In this document: positions 1-61,264 of the stretch, piece by piece
Position numbering within the stretch: the stretch's first letter is position 1
Layout of the letters: each line of letters starts with the position of its first letter
Source of the DNA: an uncultured virus (IMG/VR IMGVR_UViG_3300032030_000052)
Lineage: Duplodnaviria; Heunggongvirae; Uroviricota; Caudoviricetes
Virus record (IMG/VR): IMGVR_UViG_3300032030_000052
DNA: 64,000 nucleotides
Strand: one strand, 5' to 3'
Translations under genes and position numbers: made by a program
Notes under the pieces: generated by a model
Databases searched by the model: none
The model's input: only the letters and a program-made list of their open reading frames with translations
Told to the model about the DNA's origin: nothing

Positions 1-3000
1 TTCCAAGTATAAGAAGAGCATTGCCAACATCATCTCCGCCAATATGTGTTATCAGACTTAGACCAGCGGCTATGATAGCCACAGCAGTTCCCATAGAAAT
101 CATGGCTGCGGACATGGCTAGCAATGTTATCGACACTTTTACGAAATCATCAACGCCATTTGCCATGTTAGCGAGAAACAGTGTAGCAAGGAACAATGAA
201 CCAATTCCGGACAGTACTAACAGGTACGTCTCTGGTTTCACTTTATTTGTTTCTAGCATTGATACCGCGGCGGATATGATAATGCTCGCACCAGCAATAG
301 ACATGATGATAGCTGACATTCCAGCACCAATCGCACTTATCGTCGCTGCGGCGGCAAGGGCTCTGCCTGCTTTTACGTCAGTAGCCAGATTTAGTATGAC
401 TGCCATGCCCCCGATCATCGCTGCAAAAAGCACTATCACCAAACCAAAAGCATCGGACGGAATGGTTGAAATGATACTAAGGGCTCCCGATATTGACAAT
501 ATCGCTAAACCGAACGCCACAAACAATGCAGACATTGCAAACATGACTGCCGGGAGTTTCATAAGGGTCTTCTGGTCGATTTTCTGAAGTTCGCCTATTA
601 TGGCGTTCATCATTATTGTTAACACACCCATCATTCCGGCGAGCGCGAGAAATGCCTCACCGTTAGCTGCGTTACTTTTCTCAATTATGCCAAGTGCAAT
701 ACTAAGCAACGCTATAGAACCCGAAAATGCAAGCAATGCTATGGCTACGGAATATATGGTTTTGGCTAATCCAAACGCGGAAGATAAGGCGCCCATAGCA
801 CCTTTTATCGTCTTCTCTGATTCGGAAATGGTTTTTGAAGTTTTGGCCATCGCTTTTATGACTATCGCAATGACAATCATTACACCGACGGCTTTATAAA
901 GTTGGTCGTCTGGAATTTGTGAAAGGATTACAAGTGACAAAGCGACAATGGCTAATGAACCCGCAATAGATGTGATTTCCAAAACATTACCGGCGGATTC
1001 GACGGCATCACCCATGTTTTCAAAGAATTCGGATATGGATTTTGGGATCTTACCAATCGAAGCTATCACGCCAGACAATGATTTGATCGAGTCCATGAAG
1101 TCCGCAATGCCGATGACTGCTCCTGTGGCGATACCCATTTTGGCAACTTCACCCCATTTGATTCCCATTATACCATCAATAACGTTGTTAATGAAATCAG
1201 TAAATGTTCTAGGTGTTTCTTCGTTTCCATCAGTTATGCCACGCATACTATCGATAACTTCTTTTATACTAGAAAGAAGCGGGCTATCTTTAAGTGTTTT
1301 TGTATCTTCTCCAGTCAAGGCATCGTAAATGGTCGTAAATAGATTCTTAATAGTAGTGAAAAGCTTACTATCTTGAACCGAGGATATAAACGTCTTTATC
1401 TTCTCGATTCCAGCCGAAATGTACGGTGAAATAAAATTAAAGACACCTTTAATCTTATCAAATACATTTTTGACAATAGTGAATATTTTAGTAAAAACAT
1501 TTTGAATTTTTGATGCAGTTTTATCACTGACGATCAGTTTGGAACTCGCATCGGCGATCAGTTTCGTTAGACTTTTTGTTTTCGAAGAAACCGACGATAT
1601 ATTTATGTTGAATACGGATGCAAAAGCGTTTATAATTGGTTTTGCGACTTTTGCTATCGCGCGTCCAATATTTTTGGCGGCTGTCCACAAATCAGAAAGT
1701 GCACCAGTTATATTGTCAAGAATCGCTTTGAATTTTGCTTTCCGGACATCTCTCGCCACTTTTCCCTGCGATTTTGCTGCGGATTTCGATGCTTTGTCTA
1801 CTTTTATAGATGCTTTCTCGAAATCCCATCCAGCTGATATAACGGAGTCGATATATGCCTGAACATTTTTAGCATGCTTAGCACCTTTATCTCCTCCGCC
1901 GAACATCTCAGTAAGAACGTCGACACGTTTCTGACCGCTTCCATACATTCCTTTTAGAATGATGTCTTTTGCTGCCTGAGCTTCCTCAGCGCTAACTAGA
2001 AGCGTTTGCGTGGCATCGTTTATTGTGTCAGCCGCTTCTTCAGCAGACTCGCCATAGATTTCTTTAATAAGGTCAAAGAACTCTTTGATCTTGACTGTTA
2101 CAGAATCTACCTTCTCGACGATCTTATCAAACCAGCCGATATCGACTGACTTAATCATTGCTGAGAAAGCATCGATTCCGGACTGCCACATTTCAGAAAA
2201 ATGGTCTCCAAAAGTGACAGTACGACCTTCCATACCCTTGAGCATCTGGTCATAAGCCGTAGCACTCATGGTTATTCCGTCGTATTGCTTGCGTATTTCA
2301 TCAAGAGTACGTGGAACTTTAATGGATTTCAGCTTATTTTTGAACTCATCAATGCGTTCTGTGAGCGAAATAAAAAGAGTATTTGTTTTGTTAATGATTG
2401 GAGATGCAAAGATCTCACCAACTCTGGAAAGAGCTGCTTTCATGTTTCCGAGAGCACCCGTAAAGGTCTTATTAGCCTCTTTTGCGTGTGCACCGAAAGC
2501 ATCATCCATAGCAAAGGCAAAAGTCTGGAAATCGATCTTGCCTCTTGAGACCATGTCGCGAACTTCTTCTTCCGTGGTGTTAAGAACTTCAGCGAGTTTT
2601 GCCGCAGCATTCATGCCTCTGGAAGAAAGCTGAAGCAACTGATCGCCCATGAGACGACCATTACCGGCAACCGTAGTGAAGATTCGAGCAATATCCTCAT
2701 ATGAGGAGTTTGTCATCGCCGCGACACCAGAAATGGCTCGCAGTGATTTATGCATTGCCGTCAGATCTTGACCATTAACGGTATCAAGTGTCTTCTTGAA
2801 GTCGACTCCAGAAGCAGCCAGCTGAGAAGCCGCGGATGCCGCTGCGTCAAGACCATAAGCGGTGTCCTTAACACCGTAACTGACCGCCTTCTCGACTTCT
2901 TCCCACGCGAATCCGAGACCCTCAATCTGGAACTTGGCGTTCGCGATATTCATGGCTCTGGACCAACCACCAGACTTGATCTGACCGATGGTTGCTGCTT

Positions 3001-3292
3001 CGAGTTGCTTCACAGAACCGACGATGCCGTTTGTTATCTGTCCAATGACATTCATTCCGACAACGCCGAGAGTCGAGAATCGCCGTTCGATATTCACGAT
3101 TGCTCGTTCCATAGCAGCGAAGTTGACGTTATCGATGGAGCGCTGGATGTTATTACCGCCTTCAGTCGCGCCCTTGAGCTTGAGCTTCTCGTTGAGCTTA
3201 TCGAGCGTCGTCATCGTCTTTGCAGCATTTGACTCAAATTTGCTGTTGTCAAATCCCATTCTTACGATGCGATCGTCATAGCTTTTACTCAT
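1..3292 (-). CDS. tape measure protein (runs off left edge)
   Basis: Read manually from ATG at 3292 (MSKSYDDRIVRMGFDNSKFESNAAKTMTTLDKL...). Ala/Ile-rich, directly after tail genes. Absent from the ORF track, consistent with no stop inside the window. Confidence 0.9.
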   Translation of the reverse strand, partial: MSKSYDDRIVRMGFDNSKFESNAAKTMTTLDKLNEKLKLKGATEGGNNIQRSIDNVNFAAMERAIVNIERRFSTLGVVGMNVIGQITNGIVGSVKQLEAATIGQIKSGGWSRAMNIANAKFQIEGLGFAWEEVEKAVSYGVKDTAYGLDAAASAASQLAASGVDFKKTLDTVNGQDLTAMHKSLRAISGVAAMTNSSYEDIARIFTTVAGNGRLMGDQLLQLSSRGMNAAAKLAEVLNTTEEEVRDMVSRGKIDFQTFAFAMDDAFGAHAKEANKTFTGALGNMKAALSRVGEIFASPIINKTNTLFISLTERIDEFKNKLKSIKVPRTLDEIRKQYDGITMSATAYDQMLKGMEGRTVTFGDHFSEMWQSGIDAFSAMIKSVDIGWFDKIVEKVDSVTVKIKEFFDLIKEIYGESAEEAADTINDATQTLLVSAEEAQAAKDIILKGMYGSGQKRVDVLTEMFGGGDKGAKHAKNVQAYIDSVISAGWDFEKASIKVDKASKSAAKSQGKVARDVRKAKFKAILDNITGALSDLWTAAKNIGRAIAKVAKPIINAFASVFNINISSVSSKTKSLTKLIADASSKLIVSDKTASKIQNVFTKIFTIVKNVFDKIKGVFNFISPYISAGIEKIKTFISSVQDSKLFTTIKNLFTTIYDALTGEDTKTLKDSPLLSSIKEVIDSMRGITDGNEETPRTFTDFINNVIDGIMGIKWGEVAKMGIATGAVIGIADFMDSIKSLSGVIASIGKIPKSISEFFENMGDAVESAGNVLEITSIAGSLAIVALSLVILSQIPDDQLYKAVGVMIVIAIVIKAMAKTSKTISESEKTIKGAMGALSSAFGLAKTIYSVAIALLAFSGSIALLSIALGIIEKSNAANGEAFLALAGMMGVLTIMMNAIIGELQKIDQKTLMKLPAVMFAMSALFVAFGLAILSISGALSIISTIPSDAFGLVIVLFAAMIGGMAVILNLATDVKAGRALAAAATISAIGAGMSAIIMSIAGASIIISAAVSMLETNKVKPETYLLVLSGIGSLFLATLFLANMANGVDDFVKVSITLLAMSAAMISMGTAVAIIAAGLSLITHIGGDDVGNALLILG

Positions 3293-14510: not shown

Positions 14511-14514
14511 GGAG

Positions 14515-14587
14515 TGGGCGCAGCCGGACTCGAACCGACAACCTACTGCTTATGAGGCAGCAGCTCTAACCATTGCGCTATACGCCC
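14515..14587 (-). tRNA. tRNA with CAT anticodon (Met or Ile2), CCA not encoded
   Basis: Cloverleaf: GGGCGTA/TGCGCCC acceptor, GCTGC-CTCATAA-GCAGT anticodon arm, GTCGG-TTCGAGT-CCGGC T arm. Confidence 0.9.
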
Positions 14588-15544: not shown

Positions 15545-15740
15545 TTATGAATAGATTCGTGGTGCCTTGTTAATCGTATCGATAAGCTTCTCAGATTTAT
15601 CGTTTCCAATTTCGCAGCACATATCAATCAAACTGTTGAATGTCATGGATGCATCTTTGCCGTCAATGATATATATCGTTTCGACATAGTCTCCAGACTT
15701 GTATGCTTCTTTGCTGCTTACCGTTACGAAATAATACTTA
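15545..15740 (-). pseudogene. 5'-truncated ORF remnant fused to truncated tRNA
   Basis: Open frame KYYFVTVSSKEAY...KAPRIYS* with no N-terminal start or RBS. Confidence 0.5.
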
Positions 15741-15791
15741 CGACCACCCGGTTATGAGCCGGGAGCTCTAACCAACTGAGCTTAACGGCCC
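15741..15791 (-). pseudogene. truncated tRNA(CAT) lacking T arm and 3' acceptor strand
   Basis: GGGCCGTTAAGCTCAGTTGGTTAGAGCTCCCGG-CTCATAA-CCGGGTGGTCG, then unrelated sequence. Confidence 0.75.
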
Positions 15792-17187: not shown

Positions 17188-17250
17188 AATCGTGTCCTCC
17201 TTAAAGTCAACAATTCGTAAAAAGATAGAGAAGGTGTATCCTTCTCTTGT

Positions 17251-17317
17251 AGACTGACAGGGAATCGAACCCTGATACTTGCTGGTTACCCAGTCGTTCC
17301 TTCAACTCTAGTCTCTC
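17251..17317 (-). ncRNA. tRNA-like RNA A (degenerate)
   Basis: Perfect T arm CAGGG-TTCGATT-CCCTG, CTGG-GTAA-CCAG arm, AGACT/AGTCT closing stem; promoter motif 17318-17342 and terminator 17219-17247. Confidence 0.6.
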
Positions 17318-17342
17318 CATTATATTCCTTGTAGATTTCGCG

Positions 17343-17756: not shown

Positions 17757-17822
17757 GTTTTACTCCTTCTATAATGGAAAGCTGTCCAAAAACCAACTCA
17801 CAATACGAAAGGAGTATGTATC

Positions 17823-18578
17823 ATGAGTAATCAGGACACTATAAAGAAACTGGGGGCCGTTGTTAACGAGAACCTGCCCCACATTCTGACTGGAGTGGCA
17901 GCGGTCGGTGTAGTCACCACAGCTATTGAATCGGCGAAAGCTGCACTCAAGATCAATGACATGGACACTAACGAAGAGGATGATCGTAAGGCATCGGAAA
18001 AGGCGAAATCCGTATTCTTTGCACTTCTCCCTCCGGTAGTATCTGGAGCGCTTACGCTCGGGTGTCTGATTTCATCCGACGTAGTACACACCAAGCGTTA
18101 CACGTCCCTGCTCGGCGCGTTCGTACTTGCGAAAGGCGAACTGCCGAAGTATAAAGAGGAACTTGCTAAGATTGTGAGTCCGGAAAAGAAGAAAGAGATC
18201 GAAAGACAGATGGCAGAAAACAGAGTCAAGGAAAACACTACTGTCGAAGCGGCGGCTTCGCGGTACCTTGACGAAAGCAAGTATGTCAAACACAGAGTCG
18301 TCGATCTGGTTACCGGAGCCACACTCAAAGCATCCTATGCAGCACTGCTTAGAGGTGAGACAGAGGTTGCAAAGGAGATCGCGAGAACGGGACATTGCAC
18401 GCTTGAGACGTTCTACTCGTTTGTTACGGATGAAGCAGACTATCCGGAGATTGCTACAAGAATCTACTGGGATCAGGAAGAACGCAGAAACCAGATGGAT
18501 CTTCACATCGGTGCTGAGATCGAACCCGAAACGGGAGAGATGTACTATACCATTGACTATGAGTATGAGACCCGATAA
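17823..18578 (+). CDS. DUF6353-like protein, the only convincing plus-strand gene
   Basis: RBS GAAAGGAG; NLPHILTGVAAVGVVTTA N-terminus paralogous to genes at 55.5-60 kb. Confidence 0.8.
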   Translation: MSNQDTIKKLGAVVNENLPHILTGVAAVGVVTTAIESAKAALKINDMDTNEEDDRKASEKAKSVFFALLPPVVSGALTLGCLISSDVVHTKRYTSLLGAFVLAKGELPKYKEELAKIVSPEKKKEIERQMAENRVKENTTVEAAASRYLDESKYVKHRVVDLVTGATLKASYAALLRGETEVAKEIARTGHCTLETFYSFVTDEADYPEIATRIYWDQEERRNQMDLHIGAEIEPETGEMYYTIDYEYETR

Positions 18579-19614: not shown

Positions 19615-22488
19615 TCAACTCTTCTTGAAATATTTATTCACTGTTGAAGTTGAAACTCCGACAGCTTTTGCGATTTCATCAACTGTGTATCCAGAATTTT
19701 TCATAGCTTCGATCTTGTTTTGCTTTGCTGTAGAGATCGTCGTAGTCTCACGAGGAGTCGCTCTTTCACGAAGCTTATCAAGATCTGTAGCTTTAAGTAT
19801 CGAATAAAGCTGATTCTCAGATATAGCACCCGCCTGGATAGCCTCCCACTCACGGTCGGATATCTCGATAGCGTGTCTTTGGGCACCCACTTGTAGTCTA
19901 GCCGTTGTAAGAGCCTGCTGAGCTGCTTTCTTCTTCTCCTTAGAGGTCATATCTGGATTCTCCTGCCTCTTAGCTTCCATAGTAGCGTTAGCCATTATCT
20001 GTGCTGCGCGTTCTCTGGGAGCATTAGCCTGTGCTATCTCAAGCTGATTGAGAAGATTCTTCCGCTCTTCGGCATATTTCTCCTTAGCCTCCTTGGAGTA
20101 CTGGATGCGCCCCGTGTTAACCATTTCAAGACGGGCTTTATTAGCCAAATCTTTCATGTAATTAGCATAGGATGCATAGAGTTCCTCTTGAGGTGTTCCA
20201 GAAGAGAGCTTACGGGCGTCTGTTTCCTCCGCCATGCGAGTTGAATCTTGCATGCGGACTTTCTCTTTGCCCTTTTTATCCGTATAAGTCTCGACAACGG
20301 ACTTATAAACGAGTGCGCCTTCAGGTTTTGTGGGATCATACCACTCTTTACCCTTCTGATTGACTTTCGGCGAGCCTTGACGCTTAAGAACTTGAACATC
20401 AGACGATGCTTTGGAGATCAGAGTCGATGCACCTTCGTGATAATCGCCATTTTCATCAAGATGTCCCTGATATTTCTTCTTGAGTTCAGCAATGGCATTA
20501 TCTTTCTCAGACTGTTTGTAATCCAGACCGTGTTTTGCGGCATCGATAACAACCATACTGTGACGAACAGCACGAGCGAGCTCCGCTTCTGTAGCACCTT
20601 TAAGAGTCATATCGGTAATTAGATTCGATACGATTCCCATTTGCATCTGTGTACTATCACCGCCGGTCTTAGGATTCTTCATAGGTTTGAATTCTTGACC
20701 ATTGCGGTAATAATGTTCAATGCCTTTGGCGTCTGTCTTGATCTCATCGTACTTGTAGGACTTAGAATCGAATCCCTCAAGTCCTTTGAGCGGCGGTGTA
20801 GAGTTAATCTTGATCTTGCTCTGTTCTGAATTGCACGGGACAACAAGAACTGTATCACCATCGAAGTCTGCTCCAGACAGACGCTCTGCTACTTTACTGC
20901 TAATACCAACAGCATCAGCAGCAGTCGGCGTGATTACACGTTTACCCTCTTTATTCTTGTTATTGACTTTGAGAATCGGGATCTCAAATGTTCCACCATG
21001 AGGAAATCTGATAAGAGCAACAGTCTCGCCGTCGTGGAATTGAGGAGCGAAGACCTCATTATCTTTGATGTCGGTAAGAGGAAGAATGACCTGATACTTC
21101 TGACGAGGGAGTGATGCTGCTTTCAAATGAACAGCGGCGGAATCGCAGTCATTGGCAAACGTCTCAAGCATGACTTTCTTCAATGTCGGATTCGTAAGAG
21201 ACGAGATCTCATCGAATTCCGCTTTCTTATCCATCTGAGACAGGGTAAGCTGTTTCTTGATAAGCTGAAGACTCTGCTTAGACAGGAACTGGGACGGAAG
21301 CTCTTTGCTCCATTCACCCCAGTCACCTTCGGTTCTGGTCTTATTGATAAGGCTAAGAGATTGAGCCTGACCGTCAGAACCGGTGAAACGACCATTGGGA
21401 TCGTCGTAATAGCTCTGACCGCCTCGTTCTTTAAGAAGCGCTCCGAACGGATTATCAGGATCAGATTTGATCTTCTTCAGAACTTCCATTTTAGGAGTGC
21501 TCTTATGCTTATTAGTGTTGAAGATAACATCGACACCATCAGGGAAGTCTTTAGGATCTCCGTAAACAGCCATTCCTTTGATGTAATGTGTTCCGTCGAC
21601 GAGAATTCGAACCTGAGCATATGCTGAATTACCAAGAGAAAGATCTTTTACACCTGGACGAAGCTCGACAACTCCGTCTTTCTTGATTCCACCATCTTCA
21701 GCATAGCGAATCTGCATTCTCTTACTATCCATAGATTCAGGATATTCGAATGCTTTCTTGAAAGTGTCTCCGCCATCATAGCTGATATAGTCTTTGACGG
21801 TGTGGATTTTGCTGGAGTCGTAAACTTCTTTGTACTCGGTATCTTTCGGGCACAACACCATGGTGATCGTCTGTCTACCCGGATTCGTGACCTGCGCAAC
21901 GCCACGAGTATAAATCGGATAGCCATCAGCTTCGAGAATGGCAAGAGCCTGACCGAACTTCTCTCTAGAAACGCCGAGTTCTCTCTCAACACCTTCGCCT
22001 ACGTCAAGCATTCCCTTTTCAGCGATGGTCTTCTTGAGAATATCAGCTGTTGCTTGAGCCGCGTTCATTCGCTTCTCAGAATTCTCATTGAGAAGAGATC
22101 GAACAGACGAGTCATTCTTGTAACCCATGATCCGAGCTATTTCATTGAGGCTCTTACCATCATCTCTCAGAGACTTAGCACGAGCGACTTCAAGAGAGCG
22201 GCGTTCACTCTTAGCAATTGCCTTATATGCTCTCAGCTGAGTTGTCGTGATCTCCTGACCATCAGGAAGCTCTTTGTTGATAGCATCGACAATCTGCTTC
22301 TCCGACAGACCTTTCTTATGAAGCTGCTCCACTCGAGACAAGAAGTCACCAGAGTGCTGATACGGGTTTTCACCGCTTCCCCATGGATAACGACCAGAAC
22401 GTCGCTTAATACCATAGTGTCTCAAATCAGTCGGCTCTTCAAGTTCATCGAATCGCCGTTTCTTAATAGCATCAGCTACGTGGTTCAT
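19615..22488 (-). CDS. putative single-chain two-barrel (YonO/RdRP-like) RNA polymerase with HTH domains
   Basis: QVRI...KGM, LIRFPH and LSGADFDGD motifs; N- and C-terminal HTH-like segments. Confidence 0.8.
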   Translation of the reverse strand: MNHVADAIKKRRFDELEEPTDLRHYGIKRRSGRYPWGSGENPYQHSGDFLSRVEQLHKKGLSEKQIVDAINKELPDGQEITTTQLRAYKAIAKSERRSLEVARAKSLRDDGKSLNEIARIMGYKNDSSVRSLLNENSEKRMNAAQATADILKKTIAEKGMLDVGEGVERELGVSREKFGQALAILEADGYPIYTRGVAQVTNPGRQTITMVLCPKDTEYKEVYDSSKIHTVKDYISYDGGDTFKKAFEYPESMDSKRMQIRYAEDGGIKKDGVVELRPGVKDLSLGNSAYAQVRILVDGTHYIKGMAVYGDPKDFPDGVDVIFNTNKHKSTPKMEVLKKIKSDPDNPFGALLKERGGQSYYDDPNGRFTGSDGQAQSLSLINKTRTEGDWGEWSKELPSQFLSKQSLQLIKKQLTLSQMDKKAEFDEISSLTNPTLKKVMLETFANDCDSAAVHLKAASLPRQKYQVILPLTDIKDNEVFAPQFHDGETVALIRFPHGGTFEIPILKVNNKNKEGKRVITPTAADAVGISSKVAERLSGADFDGDTVLVVPCNSEQSKIKINSTPPLKGLEGFDSKSYKYDEIKTDAKGIEHYYRNGQEFKPMKNPKTGGDSTQMQMGIVSNLITDMTLKGATEAELARAVRHSMVVIDAAKHGLDYKQSEKDNAIAELKKKYQGHLDENGDYHEGASTLISKASSDVQVLKRQGSPKVNQKGKEWYDPTKPEGALVYKSVVETYTDKKGKEKVRMQDSTRMAEETDARKLSSGTPQEELYASYANYMKDLANKARLEMVNTGRIQYSKEAKEKYAEERKNLLNQLEIAQANAPRERAAQIMANATMEAKRQENPDMTSKEKKKAAQQALTTARLQVGAQRHAIEISDREWEAIQAGAISENQLYSILKATDLDKLRERATPRETTTISTAKQNKIEAMKNSGYTVDEIAKAVGVSTSTVNKYFKKS

Positions 22489-30334: not shown

Positions 30335-31180
30335 TCAACTCTCCTTCACATGACCCCAGTTTTCCGAGATAGCAAGCTCAATGTCGCGGATCTGGTTGCT
30401 TGCGAGACCGCCATTATTCTTCTTGATCCATTGGAGAACCTCTTCATATCCGAGCTCTCTCTTAACCGTAATAATTTCCGAATACGGCAAATCCTCTACC
30501 CACTTGCAGAGATCTCTCCACTCGTCCTGCTTATGGTTGTGCCGCCACTCATACATGGCTGCGAGGGTTTCGTAGTTGAGCTTCAGCGTACGTTTCTGGT
30601 TGTAGCTCGATGGTAAGAGCTGGATAAGTTGCCACCAGCAATATTTCTTTCTCGCCTCATCTGTTGCTTTGAGATATTCGTCTCTCCAGTAGTTAAGGAC
30701 ATGTATGGTGTTCTCAAGAATCTCGATTGACGAGTAGCCGAAATCATAATAATCATCAGCGACCTCAACTTCGAAGCATGATTCTTTATCATCAAGATGC
30801 TCATGGCTGAAGTCGTCGATAGTGAACTCCTTAGCCGTGATCCTATGCATTGTTGAGCAGGAATTCATCTCGATGTCATAAGGATTAGGACTGACAACCG
30901 TACGATAAGTGTCAAGTTCCTTCCACCAATACAACGGAGCCGTAATGTCCACGTATACATCGATATACCGACGATACTTAGCATGGACAGGACCACCCTT
31001 AGCAAGCGCCATCATAAGCTTATGGTCGTTCGGTCCGATAACGAATCCGGTTTCCGGCTGATACTTGCTTCCGGACAGCGCGTAATGCGAGTCTGACTTA
31101 TCCCAGCTGTCCTTGGGGTTTCTCATCCCTCTGATGGCGGCTTCCCATCCAGTCACTTTTGTATTTTCGATTTTAATCAT
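30335..31180 (-). CDS. ThyX-like phage protein
   Basis: AIRGMRNP..SW.KSDS, H.KYRR, APLYWWKE.DTY, SCSTMH, R.NHK..EW. Confidence 0.65.
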   Translation of the reverse strand: MIKIENTKVTGWEAAIRGMRNPKDSWDKSDSHYALSGSKYQPETGFVIGPNDHKLMMALAKGGPVHAKYRRYIDVYVDITAPLYWWKELDTYRTVVSPNPYDIEMNSCSTMHRITAKEFTIDDFSHEHLDDKESCFEVEVADDYYDFGYSSIEILENTIHVLNYWRDEYLKATDEARKKYCWWQLIQLLPSSYNQKRTLKLNYETLAAMYEWRHNHKQDEWRDLCKWVEDLPYSEIITVKRELGYEEVLQWIKKNNGGLASNQIRDIELAISENWGHVKES

Positions 31181-42007: not shown

Positions 42008-42188
42008 TCTTCTTTTCCTCCCGATTACCGACGATGCCCATCTGACCCTCACCATAATCGACGAGGTCACAGACATCACCATAGGTGTAATCTGCGGTTT
42101 CAGAGTCTTTCTGAGCAGTGACAACCTCCATGTCACCATTCGTGAGCAGGAATGTCATAAGGTCATTGACAAGCTTACTCAGTTTCAT
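41994..42188 (-). CDS. hypothetical protein
   Basis: Coupled ORF. Confidence 0.55.
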   Translation of the reverse strand: MKLSKLVNDLMTFLLTNGDMEVVTAQKDSETADYTYGDVCDLVDYGEGQMGIVGNREEKKNGEP

Positions 42189-42445
42189 TTGATTTCACCT
42201 CCTTCATCCTCGAATACTTCCCAGTCGTCGGCAAAGATGTCATGTGTGGTGATGTGATGAACGATAAAGGTCCTCCAACGAACCTTTTCGCCCGCTTTAG
42301 ATGCTCTGATATGCTTGAGAAGACAGGGAAACTCATGGTCATAATCCTCGTCGATACCGATACTGAAGCAGATAGTTCCACGGTATTTCGGTCTCGTGAT
42401 TTTCATACCGGCTCTCAGCTGAGCCATGACTTCTTCAAAGGTCAT
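42185..42445 (-). CDS. DUF2829-like small protein
   Basis: MTFEE...G.K..R...DIFADDWEV. Confidence 0.6.
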   Translation of the reverse strand: MTFEEVMAQLRAGMKITRPKYRGTICFSIGIDEDYDHEFPCLLKHIRASKAGEKVRWRTFIVHHITTHDIFADDWEVFEDEGGEIK

Positions 42446-43101
42446 ACCGATTCCTCCTTCGTGGATTCAGAACAGTATCCATCAATAAACTCGTGGATTT
42501 CTTCAAGACACTTTTTGCCGAGGTTTCTGAATGACATGAGTGTCTTATCGTCAGTAGAAAGAAGATCATCTATGGTCTCGATCCCGTTTCGCTTCAAAGC
42601 AGCATATGTTCGAATCGAGAAATCACAGTTTTCAATACCGGAATCTCGAGAAAGAGGCTCCTTCTCGATAATTACTGAGTGATGACCAGCTGCGTAACCA
42701 TGGTCGTATCCAAGAGTATATGCTTCGTCACGTACTCTCTTGAAGTTTTGAAAGAAATTATATGATATACCAAGACGGATCATATTGCGGTAGGTTTCGC
42801 ATCCGCCAATATATTCGATTGCTTTACAGATATAGGCAGATACGCATGAGCGGGTGATGCCAAAGTCGACGGCGATATTATGCATACTGCTTCCGAAGCG
42901 GTAATACTCCTGAACGAAAGTACTGCCCAAGATTCTGGATTTTGTTGTACTATGACGCATCCGTGCGAATAGATACTCCAGAACTTCTTCAATGTCTTCA
43001 GGAGCGTCATCCTCGCATTCCGGCAGTTTGTCATGGGCATCGATTCGCTTATTGATCTCAGCCAAGAAGTTATACGGCCATTTAAGATCAGAATTTTTCA
43101 T
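42442..43101 (-). CDS. HTH plus RNA polymerase alpha-CTD-like domain protein
   Basis: IENCDFSIRTYAALKRNGIETIDDLL...FRNLGKKCLEEI. Confidence 0.8.
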   Translation of the reverse strand: MKNSDLKWPYNFLAEINKRIDAHDKLPECEDDAPEDIEEVLEYLFARMRHSTTKSRILGSTFVQEYYRFGSSMHNIAVDFGITRSCVSAYICKAIEYIGGCETYRNMIRLGISYNFFQNFKRVRDEAYTLGYDHGYAAGHHSVIIEKEPLSRDSGIENCDFSIRTYAALKRNGIETIDDLLSTDDKTLMSFRNLGKKCLEEIHEFIDGYCSESTKEESV

Positions 43102-59195: not shown

Positions 59196-60047
59196 TCAAA
59201 AAGGAATGGTCTTGTCTGACAAGACATCTTCGATGGTGTATGGATTGCCATCATCGTCATAATATCGGTCATCAAGAGGGTCGTAATTCAGGTAATCCGG
59301 TATTGGAGAAGTGGTCGTCGAGATGACGAGTGCTTCCATACCATCTCCGAGATCGACCGGATCGCTAATATTGAAGTCAATCCATGTGAAATCGTCGCAT
59401 AACACCCATCCTCTGGTATCATGCTTCTTGTTCTTGATACCGAGAAAATTACACCACATGTCGACATCGACTTCTGGATGTCCCATGGTGAAGTTTCTGT
59501 TCAGAGCATTGATAGCATCATAGACCTGAGCGAGCGTCGATGTGAAATACGTCTCGGTAATATCATCGTAAAACAGAAACTCCTCTTTGCTAAGCTTGCT
59601 ATTAAGTGACGTCATCTCGCACATCGATTCAGCGCAGATGTTCGACTGTTCTGCTTTCTCAACAGCGAGTTTCTGCATCACCTTATCGTCAGCTTCTTTG
59701 CCGTTTACTTCGATATTGGCTTTACGGTAATCGTCATATTTCTTGGCAATACCAGCAGCACCGGCGCCAAGAACAGCGATGTGCTTCTTGTCGATTTTGC
59801 GAGAACCCACGATACAGGCAACGGTTCCGACCGCAGCCACAGCAGCACCTGCGAGTGGTTTAGCCGAAGCCTGAATCTTTTCGAATGTCGTAAGCTCATC
59901 GCGCTTTTCTTCGGTCCATTCTTTGATAGTCTCCTGAGCTTTGATGGTTCCTTTATAAGTAAGAATAGCGGTTAAAGCTACACCGACGCAAGCAGCCATC
60001 GATAAAATGCCGGATGCGTTTTTAGATAGCCATTTTGAAATGTTCAT
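59196..60047 (-). CDS. DUF6353-like protein
   Basis: KNASGILS..A..GV..TA.L...T.KA. Confidence 0.75.
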   Translation of the reverse strand: MNISKWLSKNASGILSMAACVGVALTAILTYKGTIKAQETIKEWTEEKRDELTTFEKIQASAKPLAGAAVAAVGTVACIVGSRKIDKKHIAVLGAGAAGIAKKYDDYRKANIEVNGKEADDKVMQKLAVEKAEQSNICAESMCEMTSLNSKLSKEEFLFYDDITETYFTSTLAQVYDAINALNRNFTMGHPEVDVDMWCNFLGIKNKKHDTRGWVLCDDFTWIDFNISDPVDLGDGMEALVISTTTSPIPDYLNYDPLDDRYYDDDGNPYTIEDVLSDKTIPF

Positions 60048-60107
60048 ACCTTTCTCCTTTCGCGAATACAAGAGTCAAGAGGAGTTGCAACAACCCCTCT
60101 CGAGTCT

Positions 60108-60326
60108 TTAGGTCAATTTCTCGTCAATGAACTTCTCAAGGTCATCCTTTTGAACGTCCGCATTGACTTCCAGATGCAGATGAGCCATATCACCATCATC
60201 TACGGACACATACACGCTCCCGATATCGACATTTACGTCGTAACCGAGCTGCTTCTTGATGTACCGCATGATGTACTTGCTCACCAATCTAGTCAGCCAT
60301 TTGCTTCGGATTTTCATTTCGTCCAT
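60108..60326 (-). CDS. conserved small phage protein
   Basis: MDEMKI.S...K.LGYDV...HLHL; promoter motif 60361-60385. Confidence 0.7.
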   Translation of the reverse strand: MDEMKIRSKWLTRLVSKYIMRYIKKQLGYDVNVDIGSVYVSVDDGDMAHLHLEVNADVQKDDLEKFIDEKLT

Positions 60327-60395
60327 ACCTTTCTCCTTTCAGAATTGACGGATTTTCTTCCATTATATAGGGTGCAAAATGCGCGGAAAGAAAAA

Positions 60396-60470
60396 GAAAC
60401 AGTGTTGGAATCGAACCAACGTCCTCTATCGTTTCTGATAGTGCTCCAACCTTGCTGAGCTAACTGTCTC
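60396..60470 (-). ncRNA. tRNA-like RNA B (cloverleaf, 6-nt anticodon loop AGAAAC, no CCA)
   Basis: AGACAGT-TA-GCTC/GAGC-A-CTATC/GATAG-AGGAC-GTTGG-TTCGATT-CCAAC-ACTGTTT then T-run; promoter motif 60472-60496. Confidence 0.8.
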
Positions 60471-60518
60471 TCATAATATGATTTGTAAATTTCGCGTAAG
60501 AAAAAGAAAAGGAGCCCC

Positions 60519-60737
60519 TCAGGACTCCTCCTCACCGTTGGCAATCACGATCTTGATAGTTTTGGTTTTCTTCTTGTCTTTCTTAAACACGCCTTTAACG
60601 CCGTCGATCTTGTTGTCGATCCATTCCTTTGCTTCGGGGTGCCGATGTAATACAGCATTGGTCGCCGCCACCCCGGTAGCAATGGTAAGAATCCACATCC
60701 TCAGTTCGTGTGCTGCCTGAACATGCTTATACTTCAT
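60519..60737 (-). CDS. cassette-borne small membrane protein
   Basis: MKYKHVQAAHELRMWIL...; promoter motif 60779-60803. Confidence 0.65.
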   Translation of the reverse strand: MKYKHVQAAHELRMWILTIATGVAATNAVLHRHPEAKEWIDNKIDGVKGVFKKDKKKTKTIKIVIANGEEES

Positions 60738-60870
60738 AACAATTACCTCCAAATATAATTTTTGATCGGGATCGTTCCCATTATACAGGGTGTAAATAAT
60801 GCGCAAAAGAAAAATAATAAGCAGTGATTCATTCGATTCCATTATGTGCTTTCTGCACCCGCTTAAACCC

Positions 60871-60946
60871 AAGAAGATATGTGGGAATCGAACCCACGAC
60901 CTCAAGCGTTTCAGCTTGTGTGCTCCCATTGCACCTCTATCTTCTC
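60871..60946 (-). ncRNA. tRNA-like RNA C (cloverleaf, 6-nt anticodon loop TGAAAC, no CCA)
   Basis: AGAAGATA/TATCTTCT, GTGC/GCAC, CAAGC/GCTTG, AGGTC, GTGGG-TTCGATT-CCCAC; promoter motif 60946-60970. Confidence 0.8.
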
Positions 60947-61021
60947 ATAATAAGCGTTGCAAATTTCGCGCAAAAGAAAAAAGCCAATGCGATCGTCACC
61001 GCACAGGCTCAATTCTGTTAA

Positions 61022-61264
61022 TCAGTCTTCGTCATCATAAACGTCTTCGTAATCCTCGGTATCGGGTACGCCCGCGATTTCTGTGATACGACGCATCTCC
61101 ACTTCTGATGAATCTTCTCCATACTCAAGTGTAGGGCAGCCATAACCACATTCCTCGCAGATGAGTGAATCTTTCCACTTCTCATCCTCGAATACCATGG
61201 GGTTACCACACTCAGGACAAGGATACTTACCTGTCCTTAGCGCTTCTTTCAGTTTATCATTCAT
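61022..61264 (-). CDS. zinc-ribbon protein with acidic tail
   Basis: CPEC...CEEC. Confidence 0.7.
   Translation of the reverse strand: MNDKLKEALRTGKYPCPECGNPMVFEDEKWKDSLICEECGYGCPTLEYGEDSSEVEMRRITEIAGVPDTEDYEDVYDDED

Follow-up and report, generated by a model that had tools for sequence, protein, structure and literature searches.

The window analysed here, a stretch of 64,000 nucleotides (nt) held as IMG/VR record IMGVR_UViG_3300032030_000052 from an uncultured virus of the Caudoviricetes, is a siphovirus-type phage genome that carries on its minus strand a tRNA-shaped RNA, here termed RNA B, whose cloverleaf body runs from base 1 at position 60469 to base 73 at position 60396. Read in that direction, with all its parts on the minus strand, RNA B comprises an acceptor 5' strand AGACAGU (60469-60463), the bases UA, a D stem GCUC/GAGC (60460-60457 and 60446-60443) enclosing AGCAAGGUUG, a single A, an anticodon stem CUAUC/GAUAG (60441-60437 and 60430-60426) enclosing a six-base loop AGAAAC (60431..60436), a variable region AGGAC, a T arm GUUGG-UUCGAUU-CCAAC (60420-60404), an acceptor 3' strand ACUGUUU (60403-60397) and a C at position 73 (60396), which is followed directly by UUUUUCUUU; CCA is not encoded. 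The nucleotides that build the tRNA elbow are present as the T loop UUCGAUU and a GG in the D loop. At the anticodon-loop place A occupies the position of U33, and alignment to the Rfam tRNA model (RF00005) sets six bases where the model has seven. Among the requirements of a decoding tRNA, RNA B therefore has the cloverleaf with four arms and the elbow, and lacks the seven-base loop with U33 and a purine at position 37. ARAGORN reports it as 'tRNA-???' with a two-base anticodon, and RF00005 gives it 43.5 bits (gathering score 29; E 1.2e-7) in a search of 1.3 kb; a whole-window Rfam run with fast filters did not return it, and it was scored only in the smaller search.

Sequences flanking the body extend the acceptor stem on both sides. 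The leader bases GAG (60472-60470) pair with C73 and the two Us behind it, and a U-rich trailer, UUUUUCUUUCC... (60380..60395, minus), recognized from sequence, fold and columns 152-154 of the family alignment discussed below, begins right behind base 73; its first two bases lengthen the closing helix to 10 pairs (GAGAGACAGU with ACUGUUUCUU), after which comes UUUCUUU. Folded alone, with the three leader bases and the trailer included, RNA B forms the cloverleaf at -25.4 kcal/mol (z -2.92), and 2 of 200 shuffled sequences fold as stably. A stable helix with a U-run at once behind it has the geometry of an intrinsic terminator, and the pairing of leader with trailer implies that the acceptor end is closed and would not be offered for charging. 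An earlier, sequence-only reading of the locus had described a full cloverleaf with the loop AGAAAC, no U33, no CCA and a U-run after the acceptor stem, and each of these features is borne out by sequence, ARAGORN, Rfam and fold.

Immediately upstream lies a promoter-type motif (60470..60508, minus) made up of a T-run, ACGCGAAATTTACA, N5 and TATTATGAG, the last three bases of which are the GAG of the leader; it is assigned to repeat family D1 and also precedes relatives of RNA B in other phages. That RNA B has a promoter motif of its own had been proposed from the sequence, and the motif (60508..60469) indeed represents one of 10 copies of a 40-nt repeat between 56 and 64 kb, each standing behind a terminator-like hairpin and ahead of a gene or RNA unit. 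A regular-expression scan finds the promoter-type motif at about 19 sites in the window, and a stricter pattern gives 3 matches where 0.63 are expected. A purine-rich start follows each copy, TATAATGGGAAC before mRNAs and TATTATGAGAGACAG before RNA B, and the acceptor 5' strand continues that start. A sigma-54 or sigma-70 reading was dropped, as the hexamer spacing is unfit and a consensus scan did not list these sites. Since the motif is common to phages of Firmicutes and Actinobacteria, it is easier to explain as the promoter of the phages' own polymerase than as one for a host sigma factor. Its likely reader is a YonO-like (RNA-dependent RNA polymerase-like) single-chain RNA polymerase of 957 amino acids (aa) encoded at 19615..22488 (minus), which matches phrog_4291 ('RNA-dependent RNA polymerase') at 1239.8 bits and ends in a helix-turn-helix domain; a sequence search of this protein against the PDB gave no match. 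Passages of one report (10.1101/842583) present a YonO-like putative RNA polymerase as the signature gene of a supercluster comprising Streptomyces, Arthrobacter and Gordonia phages together with Lactococcus phage 1706 and FP_oengus; those passages mention neither promoters nor tRNA-like RNAs.

Two further units of this kind occur in the window. RNA C (60873..60943, minus; 45.2 bits with the Rfam tRNA model and 81.1 bits with the family model R1 introduced below) has the same promoter motif and likewise a six-base loop, UGAAAC (60913-60908), and RNA A (17244..17320, minus; R1 22 bits, E 0.013-0.033) is a weaker third copy with the promoter motif, a good T arm, a CUGG-GUAA-CCAG hairpin and a hairpin terminator of its own; the loop size of RNA C and the existence of RNA A are additions to the first description. 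RNA B and RNA C are single units, free of tandem repeats, each with its own promoter and with starts 477 nt apart (repeat family D7). The earlier remark that all stems stay paired in spite of their divergence holds, in that compensatory paired changes separate the two in all four stems (acceptor, D, anticodon and T). Besides tRNA, Rfam 15 has no family for these units; matches to YrlA (14.9 bits, gathering 69) and tmRNA_permuted (12.5 bits, gathering 47) fall below threshold, and both lie near RNA C and not RNA B. Behind RNA C, at 60816-60872 (minus), a further promoter-type motif (60857..60838) is followed by only some 20 bases and a T-run, and may be the stub of a lost unit.

BLASTN searches of the 1.3-kb region and of RNA B alone against 50,697 phage records returned no close relative, only T-arm matches and a weak likeness to tRNA-Phe, the best being to a phage tRNA-Phe (77% over 59 nt, E 0.3). 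Relatives were instead reached by four other routes. A loop-plus-T-arm pattern applied to IMG/VR yielded 40 loci, four of them near-identical members carrying CUAAAG-GAAA-CUUUAG and the others ordinary tRNA-Phe-type genes or the ends of transfer-messenger RNAs. Among 35 loci taken around relatives of the polymerase, within 10 kb on either side, a covariance model built from eight sequences (R1; RNA B is in the seed, so its top score of 89.9 bits is expected) found members in 12, mostly 5.6-6 kb upstream of the polymerase gene, like the window; the place is the same even where the polymerase has only 50-61% identity. R1 also finds true tRNAs, at lower scores, the intact tRNA-Met of the window (14514-14587) reaching 47 bits as against 90 for RNA B. 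The record of the closest polymerase relative (69% identity) contains over its whole length only a true tRNA-Met and no unit, and the unit is thus not universal in the lineage. A pattern that covers the T loop and the 3' strand only, and hence ignores the central arm, matched 46 loci, among which 43 sequences are distinct, and all but about three proved to be members, each with a promoter motif and a complementary 5' strand for which the pattern had not asked; a YonO-like polymerase is encoded in four of five records reached by RNA pattern alone, the fifth record being 78% complete. Finally, cultured or deposited phages were reached through DUF6353, a membrane-protein family often found next to the RNA: Faecalibacterium phage FP_oengus has a member in an unannotated gap (record positions 2930-3011, 58.5 bits, loop UUGAUU), MT835485 has one of 49.6 bits, Lactococcus phage 1706 one at 31099-31159 (36.5 bits), and Arthrobacter phage Darby gives a weak match of 18.9 bits. 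In species-representative genomes, 8 of 33 pattern matches pass the model at E <= 0.01, the better ones lying on Ruminococcus, Clostridium and Clostridiales assemblies and on one labelled Muribaculum. The pattern TATGAGAGACAGNNAG hit at least 118 loci, nearly all by chance, and among the matches listed 4 distinct sequences have a T loop at the right distance. The loop pattern also brought up other odd tRNA-like sequences (L017 / L023, about 1480-1530, and L005, about 1480-1530), neither kind called by ARAGORN; one, a neighbour of normal tRNAs, seems to have an 8-base loop, GGUGAAAC, and the other is a sequence from a giant-virus bin with GGAAAC.

With relatives detected by covariance model in more than 50 phage contigs and in the cultured phages FP_oengus and 1706, these searches show RNA A, RNA B and RNA C to be members of a large family; its hosts are siphophages that infect Clostridia of gut and rumen and have a YonO-like RNA polymerase. 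Tools for finding tRNAs skip its units or report them as undetermined tRNAs. The features that mark the family, namely the promoter motif, a purine-rich 5' strand, D and T arms, a non-canonical central arm and a closing helix that leads into a U-run, are all found in RNA B.

Conservation was followed in two alignments fitted to the model. The larger, A4, has 62 rows, 56 of them distinct, and contains one true tRNA and two junk rows; counts on it leave out the tRNA-Met together with the two matches whose E values are 0.54 and 0.63, so that 53 distinct rows remain. A4 has 94.9% of cells paired, as against 72.6% in shuffles, both-side changes at 19 of 21 pairs, and a covariation score of 0.573, as against at most 0.138 when partners are slid. 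A2, a smaller set found mainly by gene order and holding three true tRNAs, gives 94.4% paired cells and a covariation score of 0.762. What the family keeps is the promoter-type motif, the purine-rich 5' strand, the D arm with its elbow GG, the T arm and the pyrimidine-rich 3' strand running into the U-run; the T loop, the G53:C61 pair and the D-loop GG are as in real tRNAs. What it leaves free is the central arm. In hairpins folded from the stretch between D stem and T stem of the 53 distinct rows, the terminal loop has 4 nt in 18, 6 nt in 16, 3 nt in eight, 7 nt in four, 5 nt in three and 10 nt in one, and the remaining three rows have no central hairpin. The loops include GAAA, GUAA and cUUCGg tetraloops, the stems range from 3 to 11 pairs, some members carry insertions of 15-20 nt, and three 'mini' forms are without a D arm. 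A covariance-model search for a conserved six-base loop had been recommended by the sequence-only reading, and it did reveal a large family, but one in which the loop length varies. The odd loop is nonetheless no indel error, the outcome that normal seven-base loops in the homologs would have indicated, for these occur in only the four rows just counted. Only one of the four, CUUAAAA in locus L141, combines U33 with a purine at 37, and of the 16 members that gene order or DUF6353 brought up without the help of an RNA pattern, two have a seven-base loop (AUAAACA, with C at 37). A likeness of GAAAC to CRISPR repeats was considered and dropped, as it is not conserved. The covariation agrees with the original proposal of a non-decoding tRNA look-alike kept by selection on its shape, and we conclude that RNA B is very probably a selected, non-decoding member of a family of tRNA-shaped RNAs.

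Closure of the ends is likewise a family trait. Over the same 53 rows, pairing of leader with trailer is seen 48 times at -1:73, 52 times at -2:74 and 48 times at -3:75, but only 19 times at -4:76, and G-1:C73 is found in 10 of 15 members obtained without the RNA pattern. A T stands at family columns 152-154, which lie outside the search pattern, in 44-48 rows. In phage 1706 the helix that closes the tRNA-like core reaches about 24 pairs and leads into U8 (-30.4 kcal/mol, z -3.44). A tRNA-His identity suggested by G-1:C73 was dropped, since this pair follows from the promoter GAG and the closing helix, and the loops give it no support. With the acceptor end closed by leader-trailer pairing, the synthetases that had been named as possible targets are doubtful ones. 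On balance we lean towards regarding the sealed terminator-leader geometry as functional. The earlier claim that the RNA doubles as a terminator is sustained as regards the stem followed by a U-run; in the relatives, however, the next gene mostly has no promoter of its own, so any termination would have to be leaky.

That next gene is, in most relatives, a DUF6353 gene. With a hidden Markov model made from 25 DUF6353 proteins, a DUF6353 open reading frame (ORF) was detected downstream in at least 43 of the 59 rows, and for at least 39 of these its start lies no more than about 110 nt away; these are lower bounds in that only 200 nt of downstream DNA were at hand for most rows. A second promoter motif is not evident by regular expression in the short spacers between RNA and DUF6353 gene, a CGCGA-type match occurring within 170 nt downstream in only 5 of the 43 distinct pattern-found sequences, and in L004, L051, L058, L075 and L141 the RNA, the U-run, a ribosome-binding site and the ATG come in direct succession. 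The link is looser in the window. Behind RNA B follow a second copy of the promoter-type motif (60358..60397, minus; repeat family D1, regular-expression scan), which serves an ORF of 72 aa at 60108..60326 (minus; phrog_18243, function not assigned), then a terminator, and then the DUF6353 membrane-protein gene (59196..60047, minus; Pfam PF19880, E 1.2e-40); behind RNA C the order is promoter, 73-aa ORF and terminator. Before the DUF6353 gene, at 60048-60075 (minus), the upstream half of the motif, TTCGCGAAA, abuts the ribosome-binding site GGAGAAAGG, and looks like the remainder of a deleted promoter-RNA unit. DUF6353 has two predicted N-terminal helices that are membrane-spanning in look; its AlphaFold2 model (predicted local distance difference test, pLDDT, 70.7) has no Foldseek match in the PDB at E <= 0.001 and no detectable nuclease fold, and a literature search found 'DUF6353' in no paper. 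In Arthrobacter phage Darby three small structured units, arranged in tandem and each preceded by the motif in the form CTCGCGAGAATTACA..TATAATGAGAAGG, occupy the 390-nt gap before the DUF6353 gene (L246 2584-2973; NC_073334 30189-30578), and each is closed by a helix between its 5' and 3' ends; the second and third lead into a U-run and the first ends in CCUUUCGC. A T-arm-like hairpin is present in two of them and absent from the other.

The likeliest reading of these findings, which we would place slightly short of an even chance, is that RNA B is a promoter-proximal, terminator-shaped RNA that acts through its tRNA body. The phage polymerase would begin transcription at the GAG that precedes the acceptor stem by three bases, or close to it. 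The RNA would fold during synthesis, its 5' end pairing with its 3' end to give the 10-pair closing helix and then the Us of an intrinsic terminator, and many transcripts would end there as a sealed RNA of about 85 nt with the tRNA elbow, T arm and acceptor helix, and with neither anticodon nor free CCA end, the remainder reading on into the next gene, in most relatives that for the DUF6353 membrane protein. The freed RNA might then be taken for tRNA by a host factor that recognizes shape and not anticodon, candidates being RNase P, RNase Z, the CCA-adding enzyme, enzymes that modify the T arm, or a tRNA-directed defence protein. Since a plain terminator needs no T loop, G53:C61 pair or D-loop GG, the retention of all three suggests that a reader of tRNA shape recognizes the RNA. 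Action in trans as a decoy or sponge is a tentative element of this scheme and on its own an unlikely one. Equally tentative is the wider proposal that sealed, tRNA-bodied RNAs written by YonO-like polymerases at the head of DUF6353 genes constitute a new class of phage noncoding RNA, that RNA and protein form one module conserved across phages of Firmicutes and, in degenerate form, of Actinobacteria, and that the RNA may be a sponge for a host factor reading tRNA shape (a defence protein or a tRNA-processing enzyme) or a regulator of the membrane-acting protein.

Several observations weigh against this reading. The pairing of leader and trailer can be given only moderate weight, because purines opposite a U-run pair partly for free, and on its own the pairing is weak evidence of selection. 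Conservation in the T loop and 3' strand is inflated, columns 123-131, 137-138 and 144-151 of A4 having been set by the search pattern for most rows. The Darby unit that has no likeness to tRNA suggests that the tRNA body may be dispensable in places. RNA libraries were consulted in three runs from two studies, with contigs at a depth of 3-20: one sheep-gut metatranscriptome run yielded contigs that match the window at 100% identity, another run on that sample yielded fewer, and a bovine RNA run contained a relative at 90-97% identity. At this low depth they give no RNA ends, abundance, processing or partner for the unit. One contig (60112-60394, run X1, depth 6.7) spans the 72-aa gene and the promoter motif behind RNA B, and fits read-through from RNA B and not clean termination, with carry-over of DNA a possible source. 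The contigs leave RNA B (60395-60535) and RNA C (60765-61026) uncovered, which is uninformative given the low depth, the poor capture of small structured RNAs and a possible filter against tRNA-like reads. Lastly, that a DUF6353 gene follows directly in most relatives would fit a leader acting purely in cis equally well.

Such a leader would be either a tRNA-shaped attenuator that sets the flow of polymerase into the next gene, typically DUF6353, or a processing signal for RNase P or RNase Z that defines the 5' end of the mRNA, the freed RNA having no role of its own. It agrees with the scarcity of promoter motifs in the spacers, with the five loci in which RNA, U-run, ribosome-binding site and ATG are contiguous, and, weakly, with the library contig that extends from just behind RNA B into the 72-aa gene. 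Set against it are units that stand alone with a further promoter motif behind them, in the window, in FP_oengus and in MT835485, and RNA A, which has its own hairpin terminator; moreover, a mere attenuator needs neither a tRNA-specific T loop nor the D-loop GG, and a cut by RNase Z would leave the mRNA with a 5'-monophosphate, an end that is destabilising in Firmicutes. We view an exclusively cis-acting role as possible, yet doubtful.

The repeated adjacency to DUF6353 genes in many diverged phages, in degenerate form even in Darby, together with the several DUF6353 paralogues per genome, could also be explained if the RNA were the partner of the protein in a layout like that of type III toxin-antitoxin systems, binding and restraining the membrane protein or joining it in a ribonucleoprotein. 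The antitoxin RNA of such systems (ToxI-ToxN) consists of tandem direct repeats processed by the adjacent toxin, and its genes follow the order promoter, structured RNA, leaky terminator and protein gene. The order of parts is the same here, but the RNA is a single unit without tandem repeats, and its neighbour has predicted membrane-type helices and no evident RNase or nuclease fold; in addition, three of the four DUF6353 genes of the window have no such RNA directly upstream, and a different gene lies behind the RNA in phage 1706. A partnership of this type appears improbable.

The sequence-only reading had favoured a decoy aimed at anticodon nucleases (PrrC, RloC, AriB) or at T-box riboswitches or RelA; the T-box specifier and RelA on the ribosome likewise read the anticodon loop. 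RNA B does lie in an early region among small ORFs, the genome has a Tad2-like anti-defence gene elsewhere, and portions of two reports (10.1101/2023.03.15.532788, PMC10802264) describe phage tRNAs that counter tRNA-cutting defences. However, the loop that such a decoy needs is the least conserved part of the RNA, being replaced by tetraloops or by loops of 3-10 nt, expanded by insertions or lost, and U33 with a purine at 37 occurs in a single row; this proposal is not supported by the comparison and is highly unlikely. Scarcely credible, too, is decay, in which RNA B would be a functionless pseudogene, for example of a tRNA-Phe with a one-base deletion, as the weak BLAST likeness and the GAA inside the loop might suggest: there are three copies, each with its own promoter motif, every stem is kept by compensatory changes, a covariation that contradicts decay, and the same design recurs at the same place in phages with diverged polymerases and in cultured Faecalibacterium and Lactococcus phages. 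A working tRNA with unusual decoding, such as doublet or frameshift reading by the six-base loop in line with the two-base anticodon called by ARAGORN, has a negligible chance, given that neither length nor sequence of the loop is conserved in relatives, that the acceptor end is paired with the leader and that CCA is not encoded.

The rest of the window offers some context. Its primase-polymerase of 1408 aa is 54.6% identical to the counterpart in FP_oengus, and it further encodes a large terminase, a tail chaperone, a dCMP deaminase, a Tad2-like protein, a protein resembling the RNA-polymerase alpha C-terminal domain and the four DUF6353 paralogues. The Tad2-like (Thoeris anti-defence 2) domain protein adjoins, at 42185-43101 (minus), the protein with the bacterial RNA polymerase alpha C-terminal domain, which is of 219 aa. 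The only plus-strand DUF6353 paralogue (17761-18578) has its own copy of the promoter motif and is divergent from the unit of RNA A (17244-17333, minus). A tRNA-Met-like piece with anticodon CAT (15719-15789, minus; Rfam 34.4 bits), in which neither a T arm nor a 3' acceptor strand is present, is found upstream of the intact tRNA-Met at a distance of 1.1 kb; the two differ in sequence, and the piece is therefore no simple duplicate.

Mimicry of tRNA as such is already known, and RNA B has partial counterparts among described RNAs. It shares with phage tRNA genes the cloverleaf, the T loop UUCGAUU, the D-loop GG and a score above the Rfam gathering threshold, and differs from them in the six-base loop without U33, the hypervariable anticodon arm of its family, the leader-trailer pairing and the promoter motif and U-run of its own. 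The mascRNA of MALAT1 and the vtRNAs of MHV68 are tRNA-like, are cut by RNase P and RNase Z and receive CCA; like RNA B they have a tRNA body without decoding role joined to a longer transcript, whereas RNA B has a sealed end and belongs to a bacterial virus. Excerpts of work on T5-like phages describe tRNA-Tyr acting against Retron-Eco7/Ec78 and tRNA-Lys against PARIS as functional tRNAs that replace cleaved host tRNA; in common with these, RNA B would be a phage-made RNA of tRNA type with a possible part in host conflict, but it cannot decode and its loop is not conserved. The Racr RNA anti-CRISPRs, according to portions of PMC10651486, mimic CRISPR repeats and so occupy host proteins, and they resemble RNA B as small phage RNAs that mimic a host RNA, the molecule mimicked being here a tRNA. 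No description of a family of sealed tRNA-shaped phage RNAs was found in the literature searched, nor do the contig names or 'DUF6353' occur in the searchable tables of the csRNA catalogue PMC10690425.

The tRNA genes of phages are usually read as a supply of codons or as replacements for tRNAs cut by defence systems. That a whole phage lineage should keep the tRNA body yet drop its decoding loop and its free acceptor end suggests that tRNA shape is put to some use other than translation. Members of the family are present in viromes of the human gut and the rumen, and also in phages that can be grown, namely FP_oengus and Lactococcus phage 1706, which makes the family amenable to tests at the bench. 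It also supplies a candidate promoter for the little-studied YonO-like phage RNA polymerases, and a first handle on DUF6353, a multi-copy phage membrane protein without assigned function.

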